From assembly GCA_014859345.1 (NCBI GenBank), contig JACUUL010000005.1, positions 1,072 to 65,071 of the forward strand: a DNA stretch of 64,000 nucleotides, read 5' to 3'. Of the stretch, positions 3,999-44,538 are shown piece after piece. Position 1 is the first letter of the stretch. Every line of letters starts with the position of its first letter. Under the pieces are notes generated by a model, which did not search any database, was not told the DNA's origin, and saw nothing but the letters and a program-made list of their open reading frames with translations. The translations under genes were made by a program, and so were the position numbers. The stretch is from Thermoleophilia bacterium (GTDB taxonomy: Bacteria > Actinomycetota > Thermoleophilia > BMS3ABIN01).

Positions 3999-5234
3999 AT
4001 GAGCGGCCGCCGCGTGGCCATAACAGGAATTGGCGTGATTTCGCCGCTGGGCATCGGTCTGGAAACCTTTTGGGATGCGCTGGTGTCGGGCAGGTCTGGC
4101 GCTGGTCCCATCACCCAGTTTGACGCGTCCGAATTCCGCGTGCGCATCGCCGCGGAAGTCAAGGATTTCGATCCTGCGGAATGGATGGAAAAAAAGAAGG
4201 CTCGCCGCATGGACCGGTTCGCGCAGTACTCGGTGGCCGCGGCCAGGATGGCCGTGGAGGACGCCTCCCTGGATGTCGCCGGGGACGCTGAAAAAATCGG
4301 CGCCATGGTAGCCAGCGGCATAGGCGGGGTAAAAACCTTTGAGAAGGAGACCGGAAACCTGATCAGAAAGGGGCCGGACCGGGTTAGCCCCCTGTTCATC
4401 CCCATGGAGATCGCAAATATGGCCTCCGCGCAAGTATCCATCGAGCTGGGCGTCAAGGGACCGGTAAGCACCGTATGCACGGCATGCGCCGCCGGCAACA
4501 ACGCCATCGGCGACGCGTTCGAGATAGTCAAGCGCGGCGCGGCCGACGTCATGCTGGCCGGGGGCAGCGAAGCCTCGGTGTCGCCCGTAGGAATAGCCGC
4601 CTTTGCCGCCATGCGGGCCTTGTCGGAAAGGAATGACGAACCTGAGCGGGCGAGCCGGCCCTTTGACCGCGACCGAGACGGTTTTGTCATGGGCGAAGGA
4701 GCGGCCATTCTGGTGCTGGAGGAAATGGAGAGAGCCAAAGACCGGGGCGCACGAATCTACGCGGAGATTTCCGGTTACGGCATGAGCTCGGACGCGTATC
4801 ACATCAGCGCCCCGGAGCCCGGAGGAGAAAATGCGGCCCGGGCCATGACTGCGGCGCTAAAGGAAGCGCAGCTATCAGCCGCGGACCTCGACTATATCAA
4901 CGCTCACGGCACCTCTACCCCGCTGGGCGACGAGATCGAGACGCGAGTGATCAGGACGGCCCTCGGAGAGCACGCGGACAGGGTGGCTGTCAGCTCAACC
5001 AAGTCAATGACAGGGCACTGCTTGGGGGCGGCCGGGGCGCTGGAGGCGGCGGTGTGCGTTCTGGCAATCGAGCGTGGAGTCATTCCCCCGACCATAAATC
5101 TCGACAATCCCTGTCCAGGATGCGACCTGGATTATGTCCCCAATCAGGCCAGGGAACGGCAGGTCACGGTGGCGGCATCCAACTCCTTCGGTTTTGGCGG
5201 CCACAACGTTACCCTCATCTTTCGCGCTCACTGA
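3999..5234 (+). CDS. fabF: 3-oxoacyl-ACP synthase II
   Basis: 'RRVAITGIGVISPLG' and the KAS II catalytic Cys/His/His regions. Starts 48 nt after fabG with no acpP between. Confidence 0.9.
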   Translation: MSGRRVAITGIGVISPLGIGLETFWDALVSGRSGAGPITQFDASEFRVRIAAEVKDFDPAEWMEKKKARRMDRFAQYSVAAARMAVEDASLDVAGDAEKIGAMVASGIGGVKTFEKETGNLIRKGPDRVSPLFIPMEIANMASAQVSIELGVKGPVSTVCTACAAGNNAIGDAFEIVKRGAADVMLAGGSEASVSPVGIAAFAAMRALSERNDEPERASRPFDRDRDGFVMGEGAAILVLEEMERAKDRGARIYAEISGYGMSSDAYHISAPEPGGENAARAMTAALKEAQLSAADLDYINAHGTSTPLGDEIETRVIRTALGEHADRVAVSSTKSMTGHCLGAAGALEAAVCVLAIERGVIPPTINLDNPCPGCDLDYVPNQARERQVTVAASNSFGFGGHNVTLIFRAH

Positions 5235-11842: not shown

Positions 11843-12901
11843 TCAGACCAGCACGTCGATCCGGCCGGTGTCGTCCTCCGCCTCCATGATTCCGATCTTC
11901 GCGTGCACGATCGTGCCCGCCTCCTTAAGCGCCGACTCCAGCTCATCGGCTTTTTCGGGCGGGCAGGAAATGAGCAAGCCTCCGGATGTCTGGGCGTCAG
12001 CTAGCAGCAGCCGTTCCGCCTGAGAGAGCCCCGGATCGAAATTGGTGAACGCCTGGACGAATTCCAGGTTGTTTTTAGTTCCGCCGGGGACAATGTTCAG
12101 GTCTTCGAAAACGAGGTCGCGCGCAGCCTGGATCGTAGGGACCGCCCGCGCGTGGATCCTGGCGCCTACGCCGCTACCCTGGGTCATCTCGCCCAGATGC
12201 CCCAGCAGGCCGTAGCCGGTAACGTCGGTGCAGGCGTTGACACCCACCTTCACCATTGCCTCCGCCGCCGCCCGGTTGAGCGTGGTCATGATCTCGGTCA
12301 CGCGCCTGATGGCTGCCTCGCTGGCAATGCCCCGCTTGATGGCGGTGGCGATGATTCCGGTGCCGATCGGTTTGGTCAGAAAGAGGACATCTCCTGCCTG
12401 CGCTGTGGAATTGTAGACGATCGCGGCCGGGTCGAGCACGCCGGTGACGGCAAGGCCGTACTTGGGCTCCTTGTCATCGATGGTATGGCCGCCCACGATC
12501 TCGATACCGGCCTCACGGGCCTTGTCGGCGCCGCCTTTCATCATCCTGGTCAAGATCTCCAGCGGCATGCCCCGGGTATGGAAACCGACTATATTAAGCG
12601 CGAACATCGGGCTGGCTCCCATGGCGTAGATATCGCTTAACGAATTGGCAACCGCTATGGCTCCGTAATCGTAGGGATCGTCGACGATAGGAGTGAAATA
12701 ATCGACTGTCTGAATGATTGCCAGATCGTCGGTTATCTGGTAAACAGCGCAATCATCGCCGGTGTTTATGCCCACCAGCACGTTGGGATCGCGCACCGGA
12801 GGCAGCTCCCTGAGAATCTTTTGCAAGTCCGACGGACTTATCTTGCAGGCTCAGCCGGCGCCGTGGGCCAGCTGGGTGAGCCGGATTTCCTGCTCTTCCA
12901 T
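11843..12901 (-). CDS. selD: selenide, water dikinase (selenophosphate synthetase); selenoprotein with in-frame UGA (Sec) at 12851-12853
   Basis: The track ORF (TTG start at 12826) has all SelD core motifs but lacks the catalytic N-terminus. Reading upstream in frame gives ATG (12899-12901), then MEEQEIRLTQLAHGAG-TGA-ACKISPSDLQKILREL. This matches the E. coli motif HGAGCGCKISP with Sec in place of Cys17. RBS GGGAGAGG lies upstream of the ATG. A hairpin starts 11 nt after the UGA. Confidence 0.85.
12822..12846 (-). ncRNA. candidate SECIS hairpin inside the selD coding sequence
   Basis: mRNA: UGA-GCCUGCAAGAU(11 nt)-AAGUCC-GUC-GGACUU. Inverted repeat AAGUCC/GGACUU, extended by GCAAG/CUUGC. Confidence 0.55.
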
Positions 12902-12948: not shown

Positions 12949-13734
12949 TTAAACGCCTGCCAAATCCAGAGCCATGCCCACCGCCGTGGCGGCTATCACG
13001 AGCGCCAGGACCTGCCGCAGCCGGCGTCTTCTGGTGATCTGCGATAAATATCCGCCTCCCTGAGCGCCCAGGAGAGCGCCTGCGATTAGAAAAACCGCCA
13101 TGGCCATCTCGACCTGTCCGGTCACCACTTTGCCGGCTGACCCTGCAAGGGCCGCCAGAAACACGATGCCGAGCGAACTGCCTATTGTCGTCCGGGTGGG
13201 GATTTTCAGCACATAAAGCAGGACCGGGATGATGATAAAGGCCCCCGATTGGCCCACCAGCCCTCCCACCAAGCCCAAGATTAACGCGCAGGCCGCCGCC
13301 AGGGGCCGGCTGAAATCGATCTCGGACGCGTGCGGTTCCTCAGAAGGCTCCTTTTTTGGAATGAGCATCATGACGGCGGCTATCAATGCCAGCACGACGA
13401 ATACACCCATCAACGCGCCGGCGGAGGCGAACCTGGAAAGCACGGCCCCGGTCAGCGAGGCAACAGCAATGATACCGCCCATCCACAGGACCAGTTCCCT
13501 GCTGACAAATTGGAACCGGCGATGGACGATGACACCGGAGCCGGTCGCGAACAGGCTCTGCACCATGGTGAGTCCGGCGACCACCTTCATGTCAGGATTT
13601 GCGACTCCGAGGGCCGGGGGTACGTACAGAAGCAGGGGGGCCATGATGATGCCGCCGCCGATTCCCAGCCAGCCGGAAAAGAAGCCTCCAACGAGGCCGA
13701 GGCCGAGCAATGTTATGGCCAGCTCGATGGTCAT
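12949..13734 (-). CDS. TauE/SafE (DUF81) family anion permease
   Basis: 261 aa, 7-8 TM helices, Gly-rich internal repeats typical of TauE/SafE. Lies 47 nt upstream of selD on the same strand. Confidence 0.65.
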   Translation of the reverse strand: MTIELAITLLGLGLVGGFFSGWLGIGGGIIMAPLLLYVPPALGVANPDMKVVAGLTMVQSLFATGSGVIVHRRFQFVSRELVLWMGGIIAVASLTGAVLSRFASAGALMGVFVVLALIAAVMMLIPKKEPSEEPHASEIDFSRPLAAACALILGLVGGLVGQSGAFIIIPVLLYVLKIPTRTTIGSSLGIVFLAALAGSAGKVVTGQVEMAMAVFLIAGALLGAQGGGYLSQITRRRRLRQVLALVIAATAVGMALDLAGV

Positions 13735-14342: not shown

Positions 14343-15698
14343 TCAGCTTGACTTTCCGGCGCCGCCCGCTTCACCTGGCAGCTCCACCGTATGCACAATC
14401 CGGGCCCGGGAGCCCGCCCGGGCAAGCATGTCTGTCAAGTGCATGCGGCACGAGGGGCAGCCGGTAACCACTGCCTGGACGCCGCTGGCTGCAATCTCCT
14501 CGGCCTTGCGGAGCCCTATTTCGAGAGCCATGTCATAATGCTTGAGGCTGAAGAGGCCTCCGCCGCCGCAACAGGATTGCCCGCCCGGCATCTCGATGTA
14601 TCTTACCCCGGGGATGGAAGCGATAATCTCCCGGGGCCCGTCGGTCATGTCCAGCCCGTGGCGGAGATGGCAGGGGTCGTGCCAGGTCACGGTGATCTCG
14701 TCTTCGCCCGCCCCCTTGTCTCCCGGGGACATGCCGGCCCGGGCGCGGGCCGCGCGCTTTTCTTCAGGCCCGGCGACCGCCCCGGTCTTGGCAGGCGTGC
14801 CGTATCCGGCCATAGAGCCCGAAGCAAGGAATTGATGGATGTCCAGCACTTTGGCAGCCAGCTTCCTTGCGTCCGACCGGTCCGGGCCCAGCAGCCTCGG
14901 CAGCTCCTCCCTGAGGGACAGGGCGCAGGACGGACAGGGGGTGACGACGGCATCGGCGTCGAGAACGCCAAGAATGTGAAGATTGTTCTCGAGCATCAAG
15001 CGGGCGGCGCCTTCTTCCCCCAGCGACAGCAGTGGCATGCCGCAACACTTAAGGCCACGCGGGCTGAGGACATCGTTTCCGGATCTGTTCAGCGCCGCGA
15101 CGGCGGCGAGACCCGTTTCCGGATAAAAGGCAGTCGTACTGCAACCAGGAAAGAGGATCACCCGGGAGGCGCCTGCTTCCGGGCCGCCTGACGCGTGCGA
15201 GATCTCCGGCAACATATCCAGAAGAGATCTCCCGGGCGGCGCGGGAAGTACGCGTTTGCGGCCCGAGCGGCAATAAGGCAGGTAACTCGCGGCCGGGGCC
15301 TTTTGGTAAAGGGCAGCCTCCAGGAGGCCCGCCAGCCTTAAACCGGCTTGGGGGCGGCCGCCTGTTCCGGCCAGGGCCGCAGTGGCGGACCGGGACAGCT
15401 TCCAGAACCCGCCTTCCGCGGCCAGAAACGCTTTCGCGGCCGCGATGATCCGGTGTGGGTCGATGCCACTGGGACAAACCCCTGCGCAGGCGCGGCAGCC
15501 CAGGCAGCGGGAGAAGCGGCCGGCCAGTCCGCGGGTCAGGCCCAGACGATCATCGAGCACCGCCTCCAGGAGGCTGACGCGGCCTCTGGCCGCCAGCGAT
15601 TCGTCGCCAGAAACCTGATAGGAAGGGCATGCCTCCAGGCAGGCGCCGCAGCGGGTGCAGCGGCGGATCTGGTCCTCGATCTGTCGGGGAAGGGTCAT
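14343..15698 (-). CDS. (Fe-S)-binding oxidoreductase, GlcF/GlpC-like with two CCG domains
   Basis: N-terminal 2x[4Fe-4S] ferredoxin motifs (CTRCGACLEACP...CLGCRACAGVCP) and C-terminal CCG motifs (CCG...CPSC). Confidence 0.65.
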   Translation of the reverse strand: MTLPRQIEDQIRRCTRCGACLEACPSYQVSGDESLAARGRVSLLEAVLDDRLGLTRGLAGRFSRCLGCRACAGVCPSGIDPHRIIAAAKAFLAAEGGFWKLSRSATAALAGTGGRPQAGLRLAGLLEAALYQKAPAASYLPYCRSGRKRVLPAPPGRSLLDMLPEISHASGGPEAGASRVILFPGCSTTAFYPETGLAAVAALNRSGNDVLSPRGLKCCGMPLLSLGEEGAARLMLENNLHILGVLDADAVVTPCPSCALSLREELPRLLGPDRSDARKLAAKVLDIHQFLASGSMAGYGTPAKTGAVAGPEEKRAARARAGMSPGDKGAGEDEITVTWHDPCHLRHGLDMTDGPREIIASIPGVRYIEMPGGQSCCGGGGLFSLKHYDMALEIGLRKAEEIAASGVQAVVTGCPSCRMHLTDMLARAGSRARIVHTVELPGEAGGAGKSS

Positions 15699-20381: not shown

Positions 20382-20813
20382 TTAACGTGCTTCAGTTCCG
20401 GGACACGTCAATTCCTTTTCAATCAGTCCGCGCACCCGGATAGCCGCCGCCGCGACTTCGGCCGAGAGCCCGCCGTCCCGGGGCATGACATTTCCTACCT
20501 GCACGGCGAATACGAGGACCTCTGGATCGATTCCTTTCAGGCGGGCGCTGGTGATCAGGTAAGGCAGGCCCATGCCATGGATATTGTTGGAACGCAGATT
20601 CATGATGCCAGCCTCGTCGGGATGGAATTTGAAGATGGCGCCCGGACTGGCTCCGCAGTCGATGGCGTCCACCGCGATAACCAGGTCATAATCCAGGAAA
20701 TATCTGATCAGCGCCATGCCGGCCGTGGCCCCGGTGACAAGCTCGACTCCGGGAGGCACCGATCCGGGATCGAACCCCTCAACCACCGCCACGCCCACTC
20801 CGTCATCGGCCAT
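20382..20813 (-). CDS. hydrogenase maturation endopeptidase (HyaD/HybD/HycI family)
   Basis: 143 aa with 'DDGVGV' and 'AVDAIDCG' motifs. Last gene of the hydrogenase operon. Confidence 0.7.
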   Translation of the reverse strand: MADDGVGVAVVEGFDPGSVPPGVELVTGATAGMALIRYFLDYDLVIAVDAIDCGASPGAIFKFHPDEAGIMNLRSNNIHGMGLPYLITSARLKGIDPEVLVFAVQVGNVMPRDGGLSAEVAAAAIRVRGLIEKELTCPGTEAR

Positions 20814-20875
20814 AAGGGTGTTGCCGATGCCCAGGACGGCTATCTTGTTTGGAGGACGTATCTTCTCTCAGCCTC

Positions 20876-21538
20876 TCAGCCCTGGCTGGAAGCCCGGGAC
20901 TCCGGAGCTTTCGGCTCGCGCCAGGCGAACATCATACGCCACTCTCTCAGCACCTCCGCCATTGTCAGGTAGATATGTACGCCCACTGTGATGATGAAGG
21001 CCCACATGATCAGATAGTGATACGTGCGCATGGCGGCCAGGCCGCCCAGGACGTTCGTCATCGGCGCGAACAACCCCCTTGTCGGAGCCCATAGAGCCAG
21101 GCCCGTGAGAAATGACAGGGGGATGAGGATAAAGGCCCAGAGCAGGTAAGTGTACTTCTGCAGCGGATTGAATTTGTAGACGCTGGGATATGTGTCCCGC
21201 AGGAACAGGTAATACTTGATCGTTTCCCTGGGCTTTGATTCCCCGGTCCTCCTGAGCGGGCTGAACCACTTGTAATCGGGCCCCTTGACCCTCCCGCCCG
21301 GAGGCGCGGAGCCGGCGCCAAAGAAAGCCCAGTAGAGGCGAGTCACCGTGGTGAGGACGAAGGTCCACATGGCGATCTGGTGGATCGTGATCATGTAGCC
21401 CATGGCGCCTCCGAAAAACGGGCTGTTGATGTAGAAACCCGTGAAGACCAGCAGGATCAGAGACGTCAGGTGTACGCCGTGCATGATTATCGCGGGCAGC
21501 GGATGCTCTTCTCTTGTCGGCGGTATCCGTCCGGCCAT
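20876..21538 (-). CDS. Ni/Fe-hydrogenase b-type cytochrome subunit
   Basis: 'HPLPAIIMHGVHLTSLILLVFTGFY' HyaC/HydC signature, 4 TM helices with His ligands. Start taken at 'MAGRIP'. The coordinate is +/-1 because my hand reading of 21480-21541 disagreed with the track. Confidence 0.65.
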   Translation of the reverse strand: MAGRIPPTREEHPLPAIIMHGVHLTSLILLVFTGFYINSPFFGGAMGYMITIHQIAMWTFVLTTVTRLYWAFFGAGSAPPGGRVKGPDYKWFSPLRRTGESKPRETIKYYLFLRDTYPSVYKFNPLQKYTYLLWAFILIPLSFLTGLALWAPTRGLFAPMTNVLGGLAAMRTYHYLIMWAFIITVGVHIYLTMAEVLREWRMMFAWREPKAPESRASSQG

Positions 21539-21548
21539 GTCAGACCTC

Positions 21549-23180
21549 CTAGCGCACCTGGAACTTGAGGACCTGGTTGTTTTTCGGTTCAATCACGTGA
21601 ACCGCGCAGGCCATTCATGGGTCGAATGTGTGTACCGTTCTCAGTATTTCCAGCGGTCTGGCCGGATCGGCGACCGGAGTGCCTACCAGCGCCTCTTCCA
21701 CCGGGCCGCGCACCCCGTCGTCGTCCCGGGGCGAGAGGTTCCAGTTGGAAGGAGGCACCGCCGCATATGAGTCGATCTTCCCCCCGCTGATGCGCGCGTA
21801 GTGGGCCAGGGCTCCCCGGGAAGCGTCCCAGCCGCTGTGGCCGTCACCCTCGCGGCCGTAGTCCGGCTCCCTGTAGACCTCCTTGTTGCCGGCGCCGATA
21901 TTTTCCAGCAGCTCGTCGGCCCACCTGACGGCGTTGTCCGAGTTGACCTTGGCCTTTATGACACGGGCCGCCACCCGGCCCAGATCTGACAGGAGTATCT
22001 CCGGCTGGCCGGCCGCTCCGACAGCCGCCAGGGTGTCGTCGACCAGCTGTACCACTTCCGGCCGGCCGGTCAGATAAGCCACCAGAACCTGGGCGAGGGG
22101 GCCGACCTCCATGGGCCGGTTCTGGTCGCCGTAGCGGACCGCCTGGGTCCAGTCGTACTTGCCCTCGGGCAGCTCTTCGCCTTCCATCGGCGGCAGCTCC
22201 GTGAACTGGATCGGCTCCTGGCCCGAGTCCAACGGGTGTTTGCCGTCGCCCACGCTGTCATCGAACCAGGAAGACTTGGTGTACATCCTGGTCTCGTCCG
22301 GATGAACCTCCTGAAGCTCAAGCTGGCCATCGAAAATGGCGCCCCGGGGGAAGAGACGGTCGTAAGGATCCTGGCTCGCCTCGTCCAGGACACCCCAGGA
22401 AAGGAAATTGCCGACTCCCTGGCCGGTACCGGCCAGGTCCTCGCCGTAGATGGGCGCGATCGCCAGCAGGTCAGGAACCATGACCGTGTCTATGAAGTTC
22501 TTGACCTCTTCCATGCGCGACTTGTAGAAGGCGATCTCGTCCAGCGCAGGAAGCTGAGTGACCCCGCCGGGTATGTAGTGGTGGATCATTGGGAAGCGGC
22601 CGCCCAGTATCGCGTTGCACTCATTGGCCTTCGACTGAATGTCGATGGACTGCAGGTAATGCGCGGTGAGCTCGAGATCGAGCTCCGGCGGCAGCTTGTA
22701 TGCGGGATGATCCCAGTACATGTTCGCGAACGGTCCCAGCTGTCCGGAATCCACAACCGCCCTTACCTGGTCCTGCACCGCCTGCAACGAAGGAGTTTCC
22801 GGACTGGCATTAAGGGCGTTGGGAACGTTGACATAATCGAAAGCGTTGAGCACATAGAACCAGAGTATGTGGTCGTAGCCGATCTGCGCCGCCTCGGTCA
22901 TGTTGCGGATGAGTCGGGCGTTGTCGTCCACCGTCTCCATACCCAGGGCGGTCTCCACCGCCCGTACTGAGTTAAAAGCATGCGGGTTGGGACAGACGCC
23001 GCAGATGCGCTGGGCGAACTGCCAGATGCTTTTGGGGTCGCGCCCTTTCATGAAAATCTCGAAGCCGCGGAAGAGGGTGGCGGTGTTCCAGGCGTCTGTG
23101 ATAACGCCGTCCTCCACCTGGCAGGTAATGCGAAGATGGCCTTCGATGCGGGTTATTGGGTCGATGACTACTTTCGGCAT
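21549..23180 (-). CDS. [NiFeSe] hydrogenase large subunit; selenoprotein with in-frame UGA (Sec) at 21615-21617
   Basis: N-terminal 'RIEGH' and 'RICGVC' Ni-binding motif. The track ORF stops after '...RTVHTFDP'. That stop is TGA, and continued reading gives U-MACAVHVIEPKNNQVLKFQVR then TAG (21549-21551). 'DPUxxCxxH' is the [NiFeSe] C-terminal Ni-ligand motif (DPCxxCxxH in [NiFe] enzymes). Confidence 0.85.
21586..21603 (-). ncRNA. candidate SECIS hairpin in the hydrogenase large-subunit mRNA
   Basis: UGA-AUGGCCUGCGC(11 nt)-GGUUCA-CGUGAU-UGAACC. Perfect 6-bp stem, 6-nt loop. Confidence 0.55.
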
Positions 23181-23224
23181 CTATAACCTCCTATTTCCAG
23201 AGGACAAAACCGTTCCTGCCACGT

Positions 23225-24328
23225 TCATTCTTCTGTCTCTTCCTTGCCCGCCACCGGGCCTCCCCTGCCGAACCGTCCCTTGGCGACCTGTCCCACTGCA
23301 TGGGCGCCAATGCCGATGGCCGTGGCCGCGCCCAGGGTCACGCCGATCTGGGTGGGCGTGATGTCGCCCGGCAGCCGGATTCCCGATTCCTTGTCGTAAA
23401 ACGGAGTCAGCTTGTCCCAGAAATCCGGCTCGGAACAACCGATGCAGGGACCGGCCTCAACCGGCCAGCTTATCTCACCGTTCCACTTGGTCTTGGGGCA
23501 GGGGGCATGGGTGACCGGACCCTTGCAGCCCACTTTGTACAGGCACCACCGTTTTTCCGATGCCTCGTCACCGAAGCGCTCCACAAATCTGCCGTTGTCA
23601 AAATGGCCGCGGCGCTCGCAGTTGTCGTGCACGGTCTCGTCGAAAAGGAACAACGGGCGGCCAAAAGAATCCAGCTCGGGCAGCTCGTTGTGCACCAGCA
23701 CATAGGCCAGAATGGCGATAGTGTCCTCGGCGTTGCCGGGGCAGCGCGGCGAGTTGATCACGGTGACGTCGGACAGCCCGGCGTCCTGGCGCAAATAGTC
23801 GGCCACTCCCTTGGCGCCGGTGGGATTTGGCGCAGCCGCCTGGATGTTGCCGTAGCAGGCGCAGGAGCCGATGGCAATAGTCGCGTTGGCTCTCTGGTAA
23901 GCCTCCAGCACTATATCGGCGGCGGTCCGGCCGTGGATGGTGATAGCCTCGGGTATCTCGGTGGCGACGGCCCCTTCGACGATATAAAAGAAATCATCGG
24001 TGGCAAGCGTGTCCTGAAAGCTTTGCTCAGCCTCGTCTCCGGCGGGCGCCATAACCGCCTCGTGATAATCGAGGGAGATCTGCTGCAGGATAAGCTGGGC
24101 CGGAGTCGGCTTGCGACTCTGAAGCAGGTTGACCGAACAGCCCAGGCATTCCTGGAAGAGGGACCAGATTACCCGCGGTCTCATGGCTACCTCCTCAAAG
24201 GCCTGGGCGACTCGCGGAGCCGCCAGCGGTCCGCTCAGGCCTATGAGGGCCGCCAGGGTGCCGCAGCTTTTGAGAAAATCCCGTCGCGACAATCCTGGAA
24301 AAATGGACAGTTCCCGGTGATCTTCCAT
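23225..24328 (-). CDS. [NiFe(Se)] hydrogenase small subunit with twin-arginine signal
   Basis: 'SRRDFLK' Tat motif and Fe-S cluster cysteine patterns. ATG at 24328 is preceded by GGGAGG; the track ORF has a 27-aa upstream extension. Confidence 0.8.
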   Translation of the reverse strand: MEDHRELSIFPGLSRRDFLKSCGTLAALIGLSGPLAAPRVAQAFEEVAMRPRVIWSLFQECLGCSVNLLQSRKPTPAQLILQQISLDYHEAVMAPAGDEAEQSFQDTLATDDFFYIVEGAVATEIPEAITIHGRTAADIVLEAYQRANATIAIGSCACYGNIQAAAPNPTGAKGVADYLRQDAGLSDVTVINSPRCPGNAEDTIAILAYVLVHNELPELDSFGRPLFLFDETVHDNCERRGHFDNGRFVERFGDEASEKRWCLYKVGCKGPVTHAPCPKTKWNGEISWPVEAGPCIGCSEPDFWDKLTPFYDKESGIRLPGDITPTQIGVTLGAATAIGIGAHAVGQVAKGRFGRGGPVAGKEETEE

Positions 24329-24592
24329 ATCCTGCCTCCCTGCCTCGTTTTTTTGCGGCATGCCAGCAAGTTTCTTAATCCATTCTGTGCCGGTGGGGTC
24401 ATTGGCCATGTTTTACCCCGCCGGCTTACTTTTTTCCGCCAAGCCCTGTCTTTAATCTTTTCGCAATCATATCACGTTCTTCTTTTCTGGCTCTTCATTC
24501 CTGTTTCCTGTTTTTCCATCCGGTTCCGGTGATAACTTTGCCGGCGGGACAGGCGAGGCTCAGCGGCGGTAGAATAAACGGACATTGCGGAG

Positions 24593-36864: not shown

Positions 36865-37218
36865 TCAGACAGAGGCGCGGACTTTCCCGGTCAATTTACC
36901 GATGGCATCCTTCCGTCCCACGAGGATGAGCACCAGATCGCGGTTAAGGGGAGCCAGAATCAGATCGTGGCCGGTCAGCTCCAGGTTCAGCAGCCGAGGC
37001 AGGGTGGTGCCCAGTTCCTCGGCCATCGTTTTGAAAGACGCCAGCATGGAAGCGGCATGCGCGGCTATGACTTCCGGATCGGGGCCATTATCTCCCGACC
37101 ACGCCACCAGCAACCCGTCCAGGGATGAAAGACCGGCGGCGTCTATCCCTTCTATCTCGGTGTAGGGCCTGATAATGGCCTCAAGCTCATCCCTCTCAAT
37201 GCGGTTTTTTTCCATCAA
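36865..37218 (-). CDS. Roadblock/LC7 (MglB-like) domain protein
   Basis: 117 aa with the Roadblock fold pattern. Overlaps parB by 4 nt. Confidence 0.55.
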   Translation of the reverse strand: MMEKNRIERDELEAIIRPYTEIEGIDAAGLSSLDGLLVAWSGDNGPDPEVIAAHAASMLASFKTMAEELGTTLPRLLNLELTGHDLILAPLNRDLVLILVGRKDAIGKLTGKVRASV

Positions 37219-38099
37219 TATGATTCCTCCAGTGTATCGATGATCTTGCGCAGCTGTTCCTCGCCGGAGAACTCGATCTCGATCCGGCCGGCTTTCCCGG
37301 CCCAGCGCACCTTTACCGGCAGCCGGAAAGCTGAATAAAGAGCATCAGTGGCTTCGTCCATGACCTCTTGCCTCACCGGCGGCGCCTGAGGCCGGCGATT
37401 GTCGCCTCCGGCTGTTTCCTTGCGGGCGAGGTCCTCTGTCTGCCGCACGGACAATCCACGCGCCGCCGCCCGGGCTGCCAGCTTTTTCTGTTTCAGGCGG
37501 TCAGGAACCGAGAGTAACGCCCGCCCGTGTCCCTCCGACAGCTGTCCATGTTCGATCAGCTTCTGAACCTCGTCCGGTAAGTCAAGCAGCCGGATTGTGT
37601 TGGCTATCGCGGAGCGGCTGCGCCCCAGCCGGGTGGCCAGATCCTCCTGGGTGGTGCCGAACTCCTCTTGCAGGTTGGCGTAGGCCCGCGCCGTGTCCAT
37701 TGGATTCAGGTCCTCACGATTAATGTTCTCGATCAAGGCCAATTCAAGGGATTCGGCATCGCCCGCCGATCTGACAATAGCCGGCACGGTTTCCAGGCCG
37801 GCGATCCGCGCCGCCCGCCAGCGGCGCTCCCCAGCCACCAGTTCGTAGCCGCCTCCCTTTTTTCTGACGATCACGGGCTGCACCAGGCCCACGGCGGCAA
37901 TGGAGCGGGCCAGCTCGTGCAGCTTCTCATCGTCAAAAAAAGTGCGGGGCTGTGAAGGGTTCACGGAAATTTGATTAATGGACAATTCCTGGTAGGATTC
38001 CGCGGCGCTTGCCGCCTCGCTTTCAGAGGCCACGCTCCCGCTCTCCCCGATCAGCGCCGATAGGCCTTTGCCCAGACCCTTGGTGTTTTTACTACTCAC
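37215..38099 (-). CDS. parB: chromosome partitioning protein ParB
   Basis: 'KGLGKGLSAL' and 'GERRWRAA' ParB box. Overlaps parA by 8 nt. Confidence 0.9.
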   Translation of the reverse strand: MSSKNTKGLGKGLSALIGESGSVASESEAASAAESYQELSINQISVNPSQPRTFFDDEKLHELARSIAAVGLVQPVIVRKKGGGYELVAGERRWRAARIAGLETVPAIVRSAGDAESLELALIENINREDLNPMDTARAYANLQEEFGTTQEDLATRLGRSRSAIANTIRLLDLPDEVQKLIEHGQLSEGHGRALLSVPDRLKQKKLAARAAARGLSVRQTEDLARKETAGGDNRRPQAPPVRQEVMDEATDALYSAFRLPVKVRWAGKAGRIEIEFSGEEQLRKIIDTLEESY

Positions 38100-38892
38100 G
38101 CTCTACCACCTCCGTCGCCAGATCGAAATAGGCATCCGAGCCCGCGCAGGCCGGATCATAATGGGAAATAGGTTTACCAAAACTGGGAGCTTCGCTCAAC
38201 CTGACATTGCGGGGGATGACGGTGCGGTAGGTCAGGTTGGGGAAATGGGACCGCACTTCGCCGATAACCTGAGCCGAAAGCCTGGTGCGGGGGTCGTACA
38301 TGGTCATGAGAAGGCCGGCTATCTGGAGGCGGGGATTGAGCCCGGACTGAACCGCTGCCACCGTCTTGAGCAACTGACCGAGGCCCTCCAGGGCGAAGTA
38401 CTCGCATTGGACCGGCACTATCAGCTTGTCTGCGGCAACCAGTGCGTTTACGGTCAGCAGGCAAAGCGAAGGCGGGCAATCAATGAATATATATGCGAAG
38501 TCACGGGAGATGGCGTTAATTGAATCGGCGAGGATGAACTCCCGCCTTTCCCGCTGTGGCAGCTCCACGGCAGCGCCCGCCATTTCCGGGGTCGAAGGGA
38601 TTATGTAAAGATTGGAAATGCTGGCGGACGCGATGGCAGATTCCGAGGTTACGTTTCCGGATAGCACATCGTAGGAAGTCCCCGGCGCCTGCGATTCATC
38701 CAGACCAAGGCTGTGCGTTGCGTTGCATTGGGGGTCGAGGTCGATCAGGAGGGTCGTTGCTCCGGCCTCGGCAAGGCAAACCGCGGTGTTAACGCAAGTG
38801 GTTGTCTTGCCGACGCCGCCCTTCTGGTTGGCGACAGCATAGACGAGACCGGAGCCGTTAGCCCGCGACGCTGATGAAGGCATATCGTGCAC
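38092..38892 (-). CDS. parA: chromosome partitioning ATPase ParA/Soj
   Basis: 'ANQKGGVGKTTT' deviant Walker A. Confidence 0.9.
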   Translation of the reverse strand: MHDMPSSASRANGSGLVYAVANQKGGVGKTTTCVNTAVCLAEAGATTLLIDLDPQCNATHSLGLDESQAPGTSYDVLSGNVTSESAIASASISNLYIIPSTPEMAGAAVELPQRERREFILADSINAISRDFAYIFIDCPPSLCLLTVNALVAADKLIVPVQCEYFALEGLGQLLKTVAAVQSGLNPRLQIAGLLMTMYDPRTRLSAQVIGEVRSHFPNLTYRTVIPRNVRLSEAPSFGKPISHYDPACAGSDAYFDLATEVVERE

Positions 38893-39034
38893 GGAGGAAT
38901 TCTAACACGGTGCGGGACAGGTGACCAGAGAAGGTCAAGGAAGCAGGGTTGCGCAGCATGGCGTTATTTGGCCTGGTGGCGGCGTAATCGGCGATCATTT
39001 CACCGCCGTCCGGAGCCGCAGACACGCAATTTTC

Positions 39035-39739
39035 TTAACCGCTCAGCGGCCGTTTTCGGGGGATTCCGGGACGGCGGGGGTATGCGGACGGCGTGTCCGC
39101 CGTCTTTTTGAATATCCAGACATGCAGGTTTTTAGCCTCTGGGTAGGGTTTAGCTGTTTCGACGCGGACCAGCTCGCCTCCGAGTGCTTTGCCGGCTGTT
39201 TTCGCAGCGGCGTCATCACCCGGCTCGCGGGCACCTCTTTGCAACAGGGCATAGCCTCCCAGCCGTAACAGCGGAATAGAATACTCGAGCACTTCCGGCA
39301 ATGAGCCCACCGCGCGTGCCAGGGTCGCATCAAACGATTCCCGAAGGTCGGACCGCGCGGCTTCCTCGGCGCGGGCCGGCAGAACGCGGACGTTATCCAG
39401 GCCAAGCGCGGAGGCCGATCGCGAGACGAAATCGCTTTTCCTGCGGTTGGCCTCAATGAGAACGAATCTGCTCTGAGGCCTGGCTATTGCCAGCGGCAGG
39501 CCCGGGAAACCGGCGCCGCTGCCTATATCCGCCACTGCGGTTGCCTCAGCCAGCTCCGGCAACCGCAGCAGCCACAGGCTGTCATTGAAATGTACCCTGA
39601 CGATGTTCCGGGTGCCGGAGACCGCAGTCAGCTTGCTGTTTTTTTCCACGGCGACAAGGTCAAGGAGCTTTTCGAGCTGCGATATCTGACCGTCATTTAA
39701 GCGGCACTCTTTTTTTAGCTCTTGTTGCCAGTCGCTCAA
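39035..39739 (-). CDS. rsmG: 16S rRNA (guanine527-N7)-methyltransferase
   Basis: GidB family, 'DIGSGAGFPGLPLAI'. Overlaps mnmG by 4 nt. Confidence 0.85.
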   Translation of the reverse strand: MSDWQQELKKECRLNDGQISQLEKLLDLVAVEKNSKLTAVSGTRNIVRVHFNDSLWLLRLPELAEATAVADIGSGAGFPGLPLAIARPQSRFVLIEANRRKSDFVSRSASALGLDNVRVLPARAEEAARSDLRESFDATLARAVGSLPEVLEYSIPLLRLGGYALLQRGAREPGDDAAAKTAGKALGGELVRVETAKPYPEAKNLHVWIFKKTADTPSAYPRRPGIPRKRPLSG

Positions 39740-41595
39740 TGCCGGGCCTGGATATAAAGCGAAAGAACCGATACGTCGGCGGGAGAGACGCCGGCGATGC
39801 GCGAAGCCTGGCCCAGCGACGAGGGCCGGATGCGGGTCAGCTTTTCCCGGGCTTCGCTGGCGATACCCTTGAGGCTCATATAGTCAAGATCGTCCGGTAT
39901 ATATGTGGATTCCAGATGGTGCCAGCGTGAGATTTCGGCAAGCTGGCGCTCGATGTAACCTTCGTATTTGATTTCTATGCCGGCGCGCCGGACGGCGCCG
40001 CCGTCAGTAGCAAGGGATGTACTGCAGCCCGCCAGGGAAAGAACGGCAGAAATCGTCATTTCCGGCCTTTTTAGAATTTGCGCCGCGGATTGAGGCTCGG
40101 TCAGCGGGGAACTGCCTGCTTTCGCAAGAAGATCATTAGCCGTTGCTGACGGCCTTATTATTTTCGTTTTCAACATCATCAGAAGGCTTTTCATCTGGAT
40201 ATTTTCTTCCCTGACAGACTCCATGTTGCCGTCCGGAACCAGACCGAGCCGGTGCCCTATCGGTGCCAGGCGTTCATGAGCATTGTCGTGACGGAGCAAC
40301 AGGCGATATTCCGCGCGGGAAGTAAACATGCGATACGGTTCGTCGACATCCTTAGTGACCAGGTCATCGATCAAAACGCCGATGTACGCCTGGTCGCGCC
40401 GCAGGATCAGCGGATCCTCGCCGCGTACATAACGAGCGGCATTGATACCGGCGATCAAACCCTGGGCGGCGGCCTCCTCATAGCCGCTGGTGCCGTTTAT
40501 CTGGCCCGCCAGGAAGAGTCCCTCAATGGGTTTGGTCTCGAGACTGAGCTTGAGTTGGCTGGGGGGAGCGTAATCATATGCCACGGCATACCCGGGCCGC
40601 ATCAGCCGGGCATTTTCCAGGCCAGGCGTCGCCCGGATAATCTTCTCCTGCACCCATACTGGCATACTGGTAGTCAATCCCTGAAGGTAAAGCTCTTGTG
40701 TGTGCCGCCCCTCAGGCTCCACGAATACGGGATGGCGGTCCCTATCGGGGAATTTGACAACCTTGCGATCGATGGAAGGGCAATAACGGGGGCCTTTGCC
40801 GCTTACTGATCCCGTTCTGATAGGGGAAAGATGCAGATACTTCCTCACGACCTCATGGGTTTTTGCGGTAGTGTAGGTGAGGTAACAGGGAATCTGCTCG
40901 AATTTTTTTTGGCGCGAAAAAGGCGAGAAGGTTTCAGGATTCTCATCTCCCGGATCGACGGTCATCCGGTCAGGATCGATCGAACGGGCGTCGATCCGCG
41001 GCGGCGTAGCCGATTGGAATCGCTCAAGTTTCAGGCCGGTGTCCTCAAGGCTGCCTGAAAGCTCGAGCGAGGGCGGTTCGCCCATCCTTCCGGCAGGGAA
41101 ACGCTGATCACCCACGACGATGTTTCCCCGAAGAAAGGTGCCGCAGGCCAGTACGACGGCGCCGGCGGTGATCATGCTGCCATCAGTGAGTTCGATTCCC
41201 GTGGCTGTTTCACGTGAAACAACAAGCTTGGCGGCTGCGCCCTCGAGGATCTTCAGTGATGGCGCCGATGACAGAACCCGTTTCATATTGTCCTCGTAAA
41301 GTTTTTTATCCGTTTGCGCCCTCAATGCCCGGACCGCCGGGCCTTTGCCGGTATTGAGCATCTTCATCTGGATGAATGAGCGGTCGGTGTTGCGGCCCTG
41401 CTCGCCACCCAGGGCGTCGATCTCCCGTGTGAGCTGACCTTTGCCAACGCCGCCGACAGCGGGATTGCAGGGCATGAGCGCGATCTTCTCCAGGTTCAGG
41501 GTGATCAACAGAGTAGAGCGGTCCATGCGGGCAGCCGCTAGCGCCGCCTCACAGCCGGCATGGCCGCCTCCGACTACGACGACATCGAAAAACAT
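39736..41595 (-). CDS. mnmG: tRNA uridine-5-carboxymethylaminomethyl synthesis enzyme MnmG (GidA)
   Basis: 619 aa, 'DVVVVGGGHAGCEAA' FAD site. Full-length GidA. Confidence 0.9.
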   Translation of the reverse strand: MFFDVVVVGGGHAGCEAALAAARMDRSTLLITLNLEKIALMPCNPAVGGVGKGQLTREIDALGGEQGRNTDRSFIQMKMLNTGKGPAVRALRAQTDKKLYEDNMKRVLSSAPSLKILEGAAAKLVVSRETATGIELTDGSMITAGAVVLACGTFLRGNIVVGDQRFPAGRMGEPPSLELSGSLEDTGLKLERFQSATPPRIDARSIDPDRMTVDPGDENPETFSPFSRQKKFEQIPCYLTYTTAKTHEVVRKYLHLSPIRTGSVSGKGPRYCPSIDRKVVKFPDRDRHPVFVEPEGRHTQELYLQGLTTSMPVWVQEKIIRATPGLENARLMRPGYAVAYDYAPPSQLKLSLETKPIEGLFLAGQINGTSGYEEAAAQGLIAGINAARYVRGEDPLILRRDQAYIGVLIDDLVTKDVDEPYRMFTSRAEYRLLLRHDNAHERLAPIGHRLGLVPDGNMESVREENIQMKSLLMMLKTKIIRPSATANDLLAKAGSSPLTEPQSAAQILKRPEMTISAVLSLAGCSTSLATDGGAVRRAGIEIKYEGYIERQLAEISRWHHLESTYIPDDLDYMSLKGIASEAREKLTRIRPSSLGQASRIAGVSPADVSVLSLYIQARH

Positions 41596-41802
41596 CTCAC
41601 TGCTCCAGGCGGCGCCGCGCCAGGAAGCCTTTTCTGTTGTAACTACTTGTCATAATTTAATAATTGTGGTGGTACGACACCGTCCGGTTCGGGCCGATCT
41701 ATCGTTTTCGGCGCCGGCTTTTCTTAACTGTTTTTTGTTCGGCCGCGGCGCCTGATGGCTAGCTCACTCGAAGATGACACCCGGCGCACCAAACCAACAT
41801 AT

Positions 41803-42777
41803 TTATATTAGGTTGTCAAAAAATGCATCTTTTTCCAGAGACGTTGCCGCCGCGTTTATGCCTGCCATCAGCCCCTGCAGGGCAGCTTCGACGTAGCTGC
41901 CGGCGCCTGCCGCGCGGCCGGCGATGAACAGGCCGGGCCGCGAGATCGCTTCCATGCGCGCGTCCAGCTGGCCACTGCCAAGCGCCAGATAGCTGACCGA
42001 ATAAGAGGCGCGGGTCATCCACGCCCCGGGTTCCCGCATCTTTGACCTGATCCCGGTCAGCTGTTGACGGCGGTTGCCACTCGTTGAAATTTCCTGAACG
42101 AACAGCTCGCCGGTCAGGCAGCCATCAGCCACCCGCGTGTGATTGGCGGCAACGCTGCGCGAATCAACGCGGGGAAGGCCGGACGCGTAAACGGGGACGA
42201 GTTCCAGGCCCAGGTTTCGCAGGCATACCGCCAAAGAATTGGCGGGTATCTCGCCGCGCCGGCCGCCAGGATGCTTATGGCCGGCATCGTCCACCTCGCC
42301 CTTGAGGAAGGTTCCGGCGGCAACCACCACGGCGCCTCCCCGGAATTCCTCGCCCAGATTCGTGCCCACGCGCCACGCCGGTTCATCGTCCGCCTTATTG
42401 CCCGGCTCCAGCAAGGAGACCAGCGATTGCCGCGGCTCGAGACCGGCCGCTGACTCGATAGACTCCTTGTAAGCGAGCCCCAGCTGGCGCCGGTCGATGA
42501 CAATCTTTCCGGGAACATGCCCGCCGGCGTCGGCGGTCACTTTTTCCAGGGAGAGGAATTCCGGAAGCTTTCCCCCCAGGCGCCGCATCACACGAAGCCT
42601 CTCAGTTCTCATATCTTTCAGGTCGCCCGCCAGTATGGGCGTACCGGGAGGGTATCCGGCAGTATCCAGGCTGATAGTCAGGCAAAGGGTGCGGGCGCCG
42701 GCTTTCGCCGCGGCCAGGGCGGCCTCACATCCTGCCGGTCCGGCGCCTATCACGATTACGTCATATTCCGGGATCAT
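41803..42777 (-). CDS. truncated, divergent GidA/MnmG-like FAD-dependent oxidoreductase paralogue (~325 aa)
   Basis: 'YDVIVIGAGPAGCEAALAAAKAG' mirrors the MnmG N-terminus, but the protein lacks the MnmG C-terminal tRNA-binding half. ATG at 42777 (track TTG at 42795). Confidence 0.55.
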   Translation of the reverse strand: MIPEYDVIVIGAGPAGCEAALAAAKAGARTLCLTISLDTAGYPPGTPILAGDLKDMRTERLRVMRRLGGKLPEFLSLEKVTADAGGHVPGKIVIDRRQLGLAYKESIESAAGLEPRQSLVSLLEPGNKADDEPAWRVGTNLGEEFRGGAVVVAAGTFLKGEVDDAGHKHPGGRRGEIPANSLAVCLRNLGLELVPVYASGLPRVDSRSVAANHTRVADGCLTGELFVQEISTSGNRRQQLTGIRSKMREPGAWMTRASYSVSYLALGSGQLDARMEAISRPGLFIAGRAAGAGSYVEAALQGLMAGINAAATSLEKDAFFDNLI

Positions 42778-42960
42778 GTACGGCAGGGAATCCAAGCACA
42801 GTCACCCATATAATGAATGTTCCTCATTTTTAAGTTCCTTGCTCACGGCGCCCCGGCTTGGTTTTTCAGTGCTGGCGGCCTCTGACACAGCCTGTCACGG
42901 AAGGCTGATCCCGGGGGCTCCAGCAGGAGAAGAATCAACAACAAAGCGGCTGCCAAAGCC

Positions 42961-44343
42961 TTACTTTCCTATGCAGAACTCCTGGAAGATGACATCCAGA
43001 AGATCCTCCAGCATCTCCTCGCCGGTGATCTCGCCCAGCGAACCGGTCGCGGAGCGCAACTCCTCAGCGATCAGCTCCGGGCCCAGTCCCACCCGAAAAC
43101 CCTGAGCGGCCCGGGAAACCGAGGCGGCCGCCCGTTCCAGCGCCAGCTTGTGGCGCTCGTGAGTGACTATGGGCCCCTCCAGCGGAGGCAGGCTGCCCCC
43201 CAGCACGAAGTCGGCAATCTTCTCCTTGAGCTCCGTAAGGCCCTGGCGCGTCAACGCGGATATCAAGACCGGTCTGGCTGGCAGCAATCCCTGATTGAAC
43301 GCCGCCGGCCGGCCCCTTAACATATCCGACTTGTTGATAATATATATCGCCCTGTCGGCCGGCACCGAGGTCAGCAGCGTCCGGTCGTGGTCGTCCTCCC
43401 GCAAGCTGCCGTCAAACAAACAGAGGATCAGATCCGCCTCCTCGAGGGCGCGGTGGGCACGCTCAATCCCTATCTGCTCCACCTCATCGCCCGCAGGCCT
43501 CAGGCCTGCCGTGTCAATGAGCCGAAGCGGAATGCCGCACACGTTGATAATCTCCTCGATGGTATCGCGGGTGGTGCCGGGCGTTTCAGTCACGATCGCC
43601 CTTTCGCGCATCAGCAAGGAATTCAGCAGGCTGGATTTGCCCACGTTCGGCTTCCCGACGATTGCCGTGCGAACTCCCTGGCTTATGACCCTGCCCACGA
43701 AAGCGGAGTCGATCAGCTCACCAATGCTGGCTTCGATCTCCTCCAGCTGTTCCTTGTTGACGGCAAAGTCCGGCTCGCCGGGATCCTCATCGGCAAAGTC
43801 GATCTCCGCCTCGACGCCGGCCATCACGCGCAGGAGGCTCTGCCTGAGCGCCTTGACCTCCCGGGAGATCGACCCCTCCAGCTGGGCCATGGCCACCTTC
43901 AGGCCGGCTTCGGTTTTGGCGGAGATTATCTGGGCCACGCTTTCGGCCTGGGCCAGATCGATGCGGCCGTTCAGGAACGCCCTGCGGGTGAACTCTCCCG
44001 GCGAAGCCAGAGCCGCCCCCTGCTTCAAAAACAGGGAAAGGATTTTTTGCTGGGCTACCGTGCCGCCATGACAGTTGACCTCGACGATGTCCTCCCGGGT
44101 ATAGGTTCCCGGACCCCGCATGACGCTCACCAGCACCTCATCCACGAGGGAACCGCTGTCAGGTTCAAAAACCGCCCCGTAGTGAATCGTGTGGGAGTCG
44201 GCGTCCGCCAGCCGCAGTCCCTTGACCGACCGGAATACCGCGTCACAGATGCCGACGGCCGCCGGTCCGGTCATGCGCACGATGCCGATCGCGCCGGTAC
44301 CGAGGGGCGTGGAAATGGCGGCGATTGTAGGAATTTCCTGCAT
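42961..44343 (-). CDS. mnmE: tRNA modification GTPase MnmE (TrmE)
   Basis: G-domain motifs ('GKPNVGKSSLLN') and C-terminal 'CIGK'. Start taken at 'MQEIPTIAAISTPLG'; the track ORF has a 25-aa extension. Confidence 0.85.
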   Translation of the reverse strand: MQEIPTIAAISTPLGTGAIGIVRMTGPAAVGICDAVFRSVKGLRLADADSHTIHYGAVFEPDSGSLVDEVLVSVMRGPGTYTREDIVEVNCHGGTVAQQKILSLFLKQGAALASPGEFTRRAFLNGRIDLAQAESVAQIISAKTEAGLKVAMAQLEGSISREVKALRQSLLRVMAGVEAEIDFADEDPGEPDFAVNKEQLEEIEASIGELIDSAFVGRVISQGVRTAIVGKPNVGKSSLLNSLLMRERAIVTETPGTTRDTIEEIINVCGIPLRLIDTAGLRPAGDEVEQIGIERAHRALEEADLILCLFDGSLREDDHDRTLLTSVPADRAIYIINKSDMLRGRPAAFNQGLLPARPVLISALTRQGLTELKEKIADFVLGGSLPPLEGPIVTHERHKLALERAAASVSRAAQGFRVGLGPELIAEELRSATGSLGEITGEEMLEDLLDVIFQEFCIGK

Positions 44344-44538
44344 AGGGCGTATTATAGCAGCGCCAACCATGGCAGGGAGAAAACAGAACAGGTGATTCAG
44401 AATCACCATCAGCGGCATCTAATCAATGGCAGCGCGAGGGCCGGATGCAAGTTACCGTAAAGCCATGGAAACGATAGCGGGCTGACTTCTTTTCTCCGGA
44501 ACGGGTAAAATAACCGGGTTCCCTATCGAGGAGGCAAA

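Follow-up and report, generated by a model that had tools for sequence, protein, structure and literature searches.

A predicted [NiFeSe] uptake hydrogenase with its own cytochrome b, from an Actinomycetota clade in which selenocysteine looks to be the rule

We analyzed 64,000 nucleotides of DNA from a Thermoleophilia bacterium (assembly GCA_014859345.1, contig JACUUL010000005.1, positions 1,072 to 65,071 of the forward strand), which we will call the window. Four co-oriented genes on its minus strand, at 24409..20382, make up a complete hydrogenase operon: small subunit, large subunit, cytochrome b, and maturation protease. We are quite confident that this operon encodes a respiratory, H2-oxidizing [NiFeSe] hydrogenase, located at the outer face of the membrane of an anaerobic member of the Thermoleophilia. 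Its large subunit would belong to a clade that uses selenocysteine (Sec) throughout and that gained Sec apart from HysA, the large subunit of the classical [NiFeSe] enzymes. The features of the operon, in window coordinates, are:

23225..24409, minus strand: hydrogenase small subunit, 394 amino acids as the longest open reading frame (ORF); PF01058, PF14720, TIGR00391
24269..24289, minus strand: twin-arginine motif SRRDFLK, small-subunit residues 41–47; TIGR01409
21549..23180, minus strand: predicted [NiFeSe] hydrogenase large subunit, 543 amino acids including Sec522; PF00374
21615..21617, minus strand: in-frame TGA, predicted selenocysteine and terminal nickel ligand; kept in related loci
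21585..21604, minus strand: putative selenocysteine insertion sequence (SECIS) hairpin, with a 7-bp stem and the loop CGUGAU; supported by sequence invariance
21552..21596, minus strand: C-terminal extension of 15 residues, VIEPKNNQVLKFQVR; predicted to be removed after His528 by the operon's protease
20876..21538, minus strand: predicted di-heme b-type cytochrome anchor of the HyaC/HydC type, 220 amino acids; PF01292
20382..20861 (start uncertain), minus strand: maturation endopeptidase of the HybD/HyaD type; PF01750, TIGR00072

The in-frame TGA of the large-subunit gene

As called, the large-subunit ORF runs from 23180 and stops at the TGA at 21617-21615, right after ...RTVHTFDP. Beyond the TGA, the frame continues with MACAVH and another 15 codons, up to a TAG at 21551-21549. 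The protein matches PF00374 (489 bits, E = 3e-146), and its nickel–iron motifs are RICGVCPNPH (L1) and, if the TGA is read as Sec (U), DPUMACAVH (L2). E13, C60, C63, D103, and R455 align with E28, C76, C79, D118, and R509 of E. coli Hyd-1, while U522, C525, and H528 align with C576, C579, and H582. Judging from this alignment, the read-through protein has the full set of group 1 catalytic residues, and the predicted Sec replaces the cysteine that is the terminal nickel ligand. Natural HysA has its Sec at this very position, which corresponds to C576 of Hyd-1.

Five independent lines of evidence indicate that the TGA is a selenocysteine codon: the conservation of the TGA and of the tail behind it, an invariant hairpin, a run of invariant codons, the standard genetic code, and a Sec-containing selD gene. 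We counted TGA conservation in the 15 related loci from other genomes in which the motif was found (69–79% protein identity). All 15 have TGA at the Sec position, each followed by (M/I)ACAVH. In every locus except L016, a conserved tail (for example, VIEPKSNKVLKFQVR) comes after the motif, and 21 codons follow the TGA in frame. A Nitrospirae relative that is 44% identical has TGC, a cysteine codon, at the Sec position.

The putative hairpin, (C)GGUUCA-CGUGAU-UGAACC(G), lies just behind the UGA, with the core GGUUCA stem beginning 11 nucleotides after it. Its 20 nucleotides are invariant across 14 aligned loci. The six codons over the hairpin (+4 to +9) are nucleotide-identical in 11 genes; across the same 11 genes, just 8.1% (23/283) of the codons for invariant amino acids are identical, and there is no other run of four or more identical codons in the large-subunit gene. 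Because the hairpin codons are invariant against this background, they seem to be under selection at the RNA level, as expected of a bacterial SECIS.

We also considered a reassigned genetic code and rejected it: TGA is the stop codon of 19 of the 39 window genes that are confidently supported by Pfam. And the window contains a second selenoprotein gene. This is the gene for the selenophosphate synthetase SelD (AIRS and AIRS_C domains; ~12901..11843, minus strand), which has its own in-frame TGA at 12851-12853, in the motif HGAG-U-ACK. The selD gene adjoins genes for a permease of the TauE/SafE family (12949-13734) and for an HdrD-like CCG/4Fe-4S protein (14343-15698).

The large subunit is already in the databases in truncated form. 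MBE0428554.1, from a Thermoleophilia metagenome-assembled genome (MAG), is identical to the ORF as called: it has 521 amino acids, ends at the Sec codon, and is named just "nickel-dependent hydrogenase large subunit."

Two of the related loci have irregular large-subunit genes. L016 (JARRRH010000457.1, from 2995 onward) is labelled as a Deltaproteobacteria MAG and contains the same operon, at ~70% identity. Its motif is HTFDA-U-IACAVH, its large-subunit match is in two pieces, and its tail is disrupted: the frame after the histidine runs for ~250 codons rather than 15. This could be due to mis-binning, horizontal transfer, or an assembly frameshift. In L014 (Candidatus Aquicultor primus, MELI01000084.1), the large-subunit match is in two overlapping pieces at ~5100-5120, and the cytochrome b translation includes a stretch of X residues (from masked or N bases). 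The break in L014 is probably an assembly gap and not biology.

From the small subunit to the protease

A preliminary description of this DNA had read the minus-strand genes, in order, as a small subunit with an SRRDFLK motif, a Sec-containing large subunit, a HyaC-like cytochrome b, and a HyaD-like protease. The domains and the coordinates agree with this reading. The genes are also as tightly spaced as it had stated, with 44, 10, and ~14–32 nucleotides between consecutive genes. The same order is found in 16 of 16 close genomic loci, where the contig extends far enough. Scans for promoters and terminators scored no better than shuffled sequence.

The small subunit matches PF01058 and PF14720, and it scores 315 bits against TIGR00391 (cut-off 179.5). 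The model for signals of the twin-arginine translocation (Tat) system, TIGR01409, matches residues 40–70 with 21.8 bits (cut-off 16.7), and SRRDFLK is kept in all aligned relatives. The first ~27 residues (window 24328-24409) are poorly conserved, and tblastn matches start anywhere from residue 5 to residue 34. Translation may really begin at an internal methionine nearer to the Tat motif (M17 or M28).

When aligned with HyaA and HybO, the small subunit has 11 of 11 iron–sulfur ligands conserved: C88, C91, C183, and C223; H261, C264, C289, and C295; and C304, C322, and C325. The fourth position of the medial cluster is a proline, Pro319, in SWPVEA (window 23453-23455). As predicted from these ligands, the electron relay would consist of a proximal [4Fe-4S], a medial [3Fe-4S] (with the proline), and a distal [4Fe-4S] cluster.

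The C terminus of the small subunit has a hydrophobic helix that is rich in glycine and alanine (residues ~354–376, by a hydropathy scale). The helix aligns with the anchor of HyaA, and its His370 is shared with E. coli HyaA. The anchor that the preliminary description had left to be checked thus appears to be present. More broadly, that description had proposed a membrane-anchored, Tat-exported [NiFeSe] uptake hydrogenase accompanied by a b-type cytochrome of its own, and each structural part of it that sequence can address is supported.

The third gene is preceded by AGGAGG, which overlaps the large-subunit TAG and lies 6 nucleotides upstream of the ATG at 21538. Its product matches PF01292 (88 bits). 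All 20 sequences compared, E. coli HyaC among them, have His20, His53, His174, and His188; the final helix holds the last two, with a spacing of 14 residues. So the product is predicted to be a four-histidine cytochrome b that binds two hemes. The fourth gene encodes a protease of the HycI/HybD family, with matches to PF01750 and to TIGR00072 (106 bits, cut-off 47).

Among the closest known systems are E. coli Hyd-1 (HyaABCD, group 1d) and HydABC of Wolinella and Helicobacter (group 1b). The window's operon shares with them the subunits and their order, the Tat signal, the histidine of the anchor helix, the proline at the medial cluster, the four heme histidines, and a tail-cleaving protease. 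The large subunit is 40% identical to HyaB, but natural Hyd-1 and HydABC use cysteine. Sec has been engineered into Hyd-1 at C576 (C576U; PMC8020662), and Sec522 would be the natural counterpart of that variant. The window's operon also differs from these systems in that it is without accessory genes of the HyaE/HyaF type, and its small subunit appears to lack the extra cysteines of the O2-tolerant group 1d proximal clusters (from a comparison that was not made in detail).

Relatives of the large subunit and the origin of its selenocysteine

The 120 best homologues of the large subunit, which reach down to ~60% identity, are from Thermoleophilia, Candidatus Aquicultor, Coriobacteriia, and unclassified Actinomycetota MAGs. 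Because 119 of these 120 closest homologues end exactly at DP in the database, the clade is apparently all-Sec: by this measure, Sec looks to be the rule and not the exception.

In an exhaustive search of representatives at 50% identity, the whole Sec clade collapses to a single representative, P0089. The next representatives are all Cys forms: P0121 from Nitrospirota (49% identical), P0122 (46%), and P0123 from a MAG of a gut Coriobacteriaceae (43%). We built a bootstrapped neighbor-joining tree from 78 large subunits, in which the Sec clade is monophyletic (100% bootstrap) and the Cys-form P0122 is its sister (100% bootstrap). At the P0122 locus, the gene order is cytochrome b, small subunit, large subunit, protease. 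The sole other representative with Sec, P0162, is a true HysA (835 bits against NF045518, cut-off 780), and of the labelled sequences in the tree it lies farthest away. Comparisons with the Protein Data Bank (PDB) agree: standard [NiFe] enzymes of Desulfovibrio score ~420 bits, Hyd-2 scores ~370, and HysA scores ~255. Since the sisters of the clade have cysteine and HysA is distant by both measures, Sec most likely arose here independently of HysA.

The residue at the fourth medial position divides the Sec clade. It is proline in the window and in L001, L002, L004–L008, L015, and L016, which are mostly MAGs labelled as Thermoleophilia. It is cysteine in L009 and L011–L014 (the Aquicultor loci plus L012 and L013) and also in both outgroups whose large subunits have cysteine. 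This pattern suggests a switch from cysteine to proline within the all-Sec lineage.

Which known group is this? HydDB split a "Coriobacteria-type (putative)" group 1i from group 1a, and its table marks [NiFeSe] variants for groups 1a, 3a, and 3c only (PMC5037454). Anaerosoma tenue (JALNTY01) and Parvivirga hydrogeniphila (JAMCCO01) have a group 1i cluster, as classified by HydDB, with genes for the large subunit, the small subunit, a cytochrome b, and a protease, although just three protein accessions are given for the four genes; this enzyme of the Anaerosomatales is predicted to be membrane-bound and quinone-linked, and both cultured strains grow on H2 (PMC9686372). Group 1i is described as [NiFe] and as restricted to Coriobacteriales, and Sec is not mentioned (PMC9686372, PMC5037454). 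Rumen studies describe group 1i as functionally unresolved, and they do not mention Sec either.

The window's operon has the same four-gene content, the same predicted role in quinone-linked H2 uptake, and a host in the same phylum, Actinomycetota. Furthermore, enzymes from Coriobacteriia MAGs share 62–65% identity with the window's large subunit and fall in the same monophyletic clade. In contrast to group 1i as described, the window's enzyme is predicted to contain Sec and comes from Thermoleophilia. We think it likely that the clade matches or adjoins HydDB's group 1i, as judged by the description of that group and not by HydDB reference sequences. (Two further searches, one started from a Coriobacteriia enzyme and one from P0122, yielded MAG or unnamed sequences only and gave no link to cultured Slackia, Eggerthella, or Anaerosoma.)

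The best NCBIfam match of the window's large subunit is NF033181, "NiFeSe_hydrog," with a cut-off of 600 bits. Neither the window's protein (478 bits) nor P0089 (400 bits) passes, and P0122 and P0123 are also below the cut-off, which is consistent with a separate group. HysA passes, as do Nitrospirota Cys forms. Since the model also accepts Cys forms, we rejected it as a specific family of Sec-containing hydrogenases.

Another cluster of this kind is known from Firmicutes. In Syntrophaceticus schinkii, SSCH_30031-33033 encode a small subunit with a Tat signal, a large subunit with Sec, and a third subunit that is like cytochrome b; the cluster is syntenic in Thermacetogenium phaeum, Carboxydothermus hydrogenoformans, and Desulfosporosinus orientis (PMC5113046). 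By its description, which is all that we compared, this cluster has the same concept and gene order as the window's operon. It differs in being from Firmicutes, with the maturation genes of S. schinkii elsewhere in the genome, whereas the window's operon includes the protease. The Firmicute enzyme probably belongs to the old group 1a lineage.

The preliminary description had considered a [NiFeSe] enzyme with a cytochrome b partner to be an unusual combination, pending its phylogenetic placement. Given that placement (by description, at or beside group 1i, with Sec as the rule, judging by 119 of the 120 closest homologues), the claim stands in part. The cytochrome b partner is standard in group 1i (PMC9686372, PMC5037454), and the Firmicute cluster is a precedent (PMC5113046), but HydDB's table marks no [NiFeSe] variants in group 1i. 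In the literature that we searched, we found no statement that group-1i-like enzymes of Actinobacteria contain Sec.

Proposed role, alternatives, and significance

Our proposal for how the enzyme works draws on what is established for HyaABC and HydABC. SelB would decode the UGA with the help of the hairpin just downstream, and Hyp proteins encoded elsewhere would assemble the nickel–iron site. In group 1 enzymes, the C-terminal extension is removed after nickel insertion; here, the operon's protease would cut off the 15-residue tail after His528. The folded dimer of small and large subunits would then be exported by Tat and would dock on the cytochrome b. H2 would be split outside the membrane, and the electrons would pass through the three clusters and the two hemes to menaquinone. 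If menaquinone reduction draws its protons from the cytoplasm, then this is a redox loop that would generate a proton-motive force.

If the TGA were a true stop, then the gene would be either a truncated pseudogene or the gene for a 521-residue protein that lacks two of the nickel ligands. Database annotation takes this view, with MBE0428554.1 and 119 relatives ending at DP, and the lack of an Rfam SECIS match would fit it. But it is effectively refuted by the TGA and in-frame CAVH in 15 of 15 loci at 69–79% identity, with the tail in all but L016; by the six consecutive codons that are nucleotide-invariant over the hairpin; by the downstream genes, which are intact and conserved; and by the window's selD, which likewise needs UGA read-through. 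It also seems very unlikely, if not quite so implausible, that this is a classical periplasmic [NiFeSe] enzyme of the HysAB type (group 1a) that acquired a cytochrome b gene. HysAB of Desulfovibrio and Desulfomicrobium (PDB 1CC1 and 2WPN) does share the position of Sec, Tat export, and a HynD-like protease with the window's enzyme. However, it has neither the cytochrome b nor the small-subunit anchor. In the 1CC1 and 2WPN structures, the medial cluster is a [4Fe-4S] with cysteine, in an all-[4Fe-4S] chain; the window's small subunit has proline at this position. The window's proteins also fall far short of the models for HysA (341 versus 780 bits for NF045518) and for its small subunit (217 versus 470 bits for NF045520), and the large subunit does not reach the cut-off of the broad NF033181 model, even though this is its best NCBIfam match. 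The tree and the PDB scores place HysA at a distance as well. That Coriobacteria-type enzymes were first placed in group 1a by HydDB (PMC5037454) is the remaining point in favor of this idea.

Another question is the direction of catalysis. The enzyme might be bidirectional or operate mainly in reverse, drawing on the proton-motive force to make H2 from menaquinol. Tat export, together with a di-heme cytochrome b that feeds quinone, is instead the architecture of an uptake enzyme. A reverse mode has been proposed for E. coli Hyd-2, and a high activity for H2 production is typical of [NiFeSe] enzymes; on the other hand, the reduction of protons by menaquinol is strongly uphill, from general bioenergetics. 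From the literature, altered catalysis has been tied to Sec at this position (PMC8020662), groups 1c and 1e count as physiologically reversible in HydDB (PMC5037454), and the related Firmicute cluster with a NiFeSe enzyme and a cytochrome b was expressed under H2-producing syntrophic conditions (PMC5113046). But the cultured Anaerosomatales that have a group 1i cluster consume H2 for growth (PMC9686372). Overall, we consider a mainly reverse or bidirectional enzyme to be unlikely, and we favor H2 uptake.

Several observations count against a respiratory [NiFeSe] hydrogenase from an all-Sec clade. The hairpin shows no covariation, since its sequence never varies. The predicted folding behind the UGA is unexceptional when compared to shuffled sequences (−9.4 kcal/mol and z = −1.2 for 43 nucleotides; z = 0.0 for 81 nucleotides), so it is the invariance of synonymous sites that carries the argument for a SECIS. 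No Rfam SECIS family matched, either in a scan of the whole window at gathering thresholds or in a permissive scan near the UGA. Within the 64-kb window, we did not find selA, selB, hyp genes, or any terminal reductase, and ARAGORN did not find a tRNA for Sec. The cytochrome b scores 102 bits against TIGR02125, which is under the cut-off of 121.5. The deep nodes of the tree have bootstrap values of just 27–50%. The gut Coriobacteriaceae enzyme P0123, at 43% identity, is a Cys form that lies outside the Sec clade, so the Sec clade and group 1i are not identical. And we infer Sec insertion, the heme content, the quinone partner, and the direction of catalysis, all four, from sequence.

The start of the protease gene is another difficulty. 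The ORF as listed, with the ATG at 20813, leaves out a conserved N-terminal strand, KIAVLGIGN, which is encoded in the same frame further upstream. The protease would therefore start before this ATG, at a non-canonical codon: between an in-frame TGA (20868-20870) and the ATG, there is no ATG, GTG, or TTG. Unless the first strand is missing from the protein, translation must begin at a rare codon, either CTG at 20834 or one of the ATA codons at 20861 and 20843. The protease gene of L013 is in the same situation, and the other relatives have canonical starts.

The window's operon is an ordinary member of its own clade, because this lineage normally has a cytochrome b partner and, as a rule, Sec. 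It has known parts in a known order and is not a new mechanism. Two aspects seem to be new, in that we did not find them described in the literature that we searched. One is that a large Actinobacterial clade is apparently [NiFeSe], as a separate Sec lineage. The other is that the window's sub-branch of the Sec clade is predicted to have an electron relay of the standard type, with a [3Fe-4S] cluster. On the usual account, [NiFeSe] hydrogenases occur only in methanogens and, as part of group 1a, in sulfate reducers (PMC8020662, PMC5037454).

A broader claim would be that a widespread clade of Actinomycetota, spanning Thermoleophilia, Aquicultoria, and subsurface Coriobacteriia, depends obligately on selenium for this enzyme, with Sec that is independent of HysA and with switching between cysteine and proline at the medial cluster. 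We see this as about equally likely to be right or wrong. If it is right, then selenium limits H2 uptake by common bacteria of the subsurface and of sediments, and surveys of "[NiFe] group 1i" have missed this. The switching at the medial cluster would also be a natural experiment that separates the effect of selenium at the active site from the composition of the electron relay.

Annotation pipelines and hydrogenase surveys would be truncating or mislabelling hundreds of such genes, and the H2-driven respiration of subsurface Actinomycetota may depend on the supply of selenium. The cultured strains of Anaerosomatales offer a direct route to testing for selenium dependence. These results are relevant to the classification of hydrogenases, to selenium ecology, and to enzyme engineering. 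[NiFeSe] hydrogenases are prized for their high activity and their fast recovery from O2, and the clade would be a natural and populous Sec lineage on a membrane-bound, quinone-coupled framework.

Finally, we looked at the surroundings of the operon. Its neighbors are housekeeping genes (fatty-acid synthesis, ACC, POR, and RNR). Elsewhere in the window, at 37215-44418, parB, parA, mnmG (along with a second GIDA-like gene), and mnmE are grouped together. This grouping is typical of the neighborhood of the replication origin in bacteria, so the operon appears to lie in the core chromosome and not in an island.

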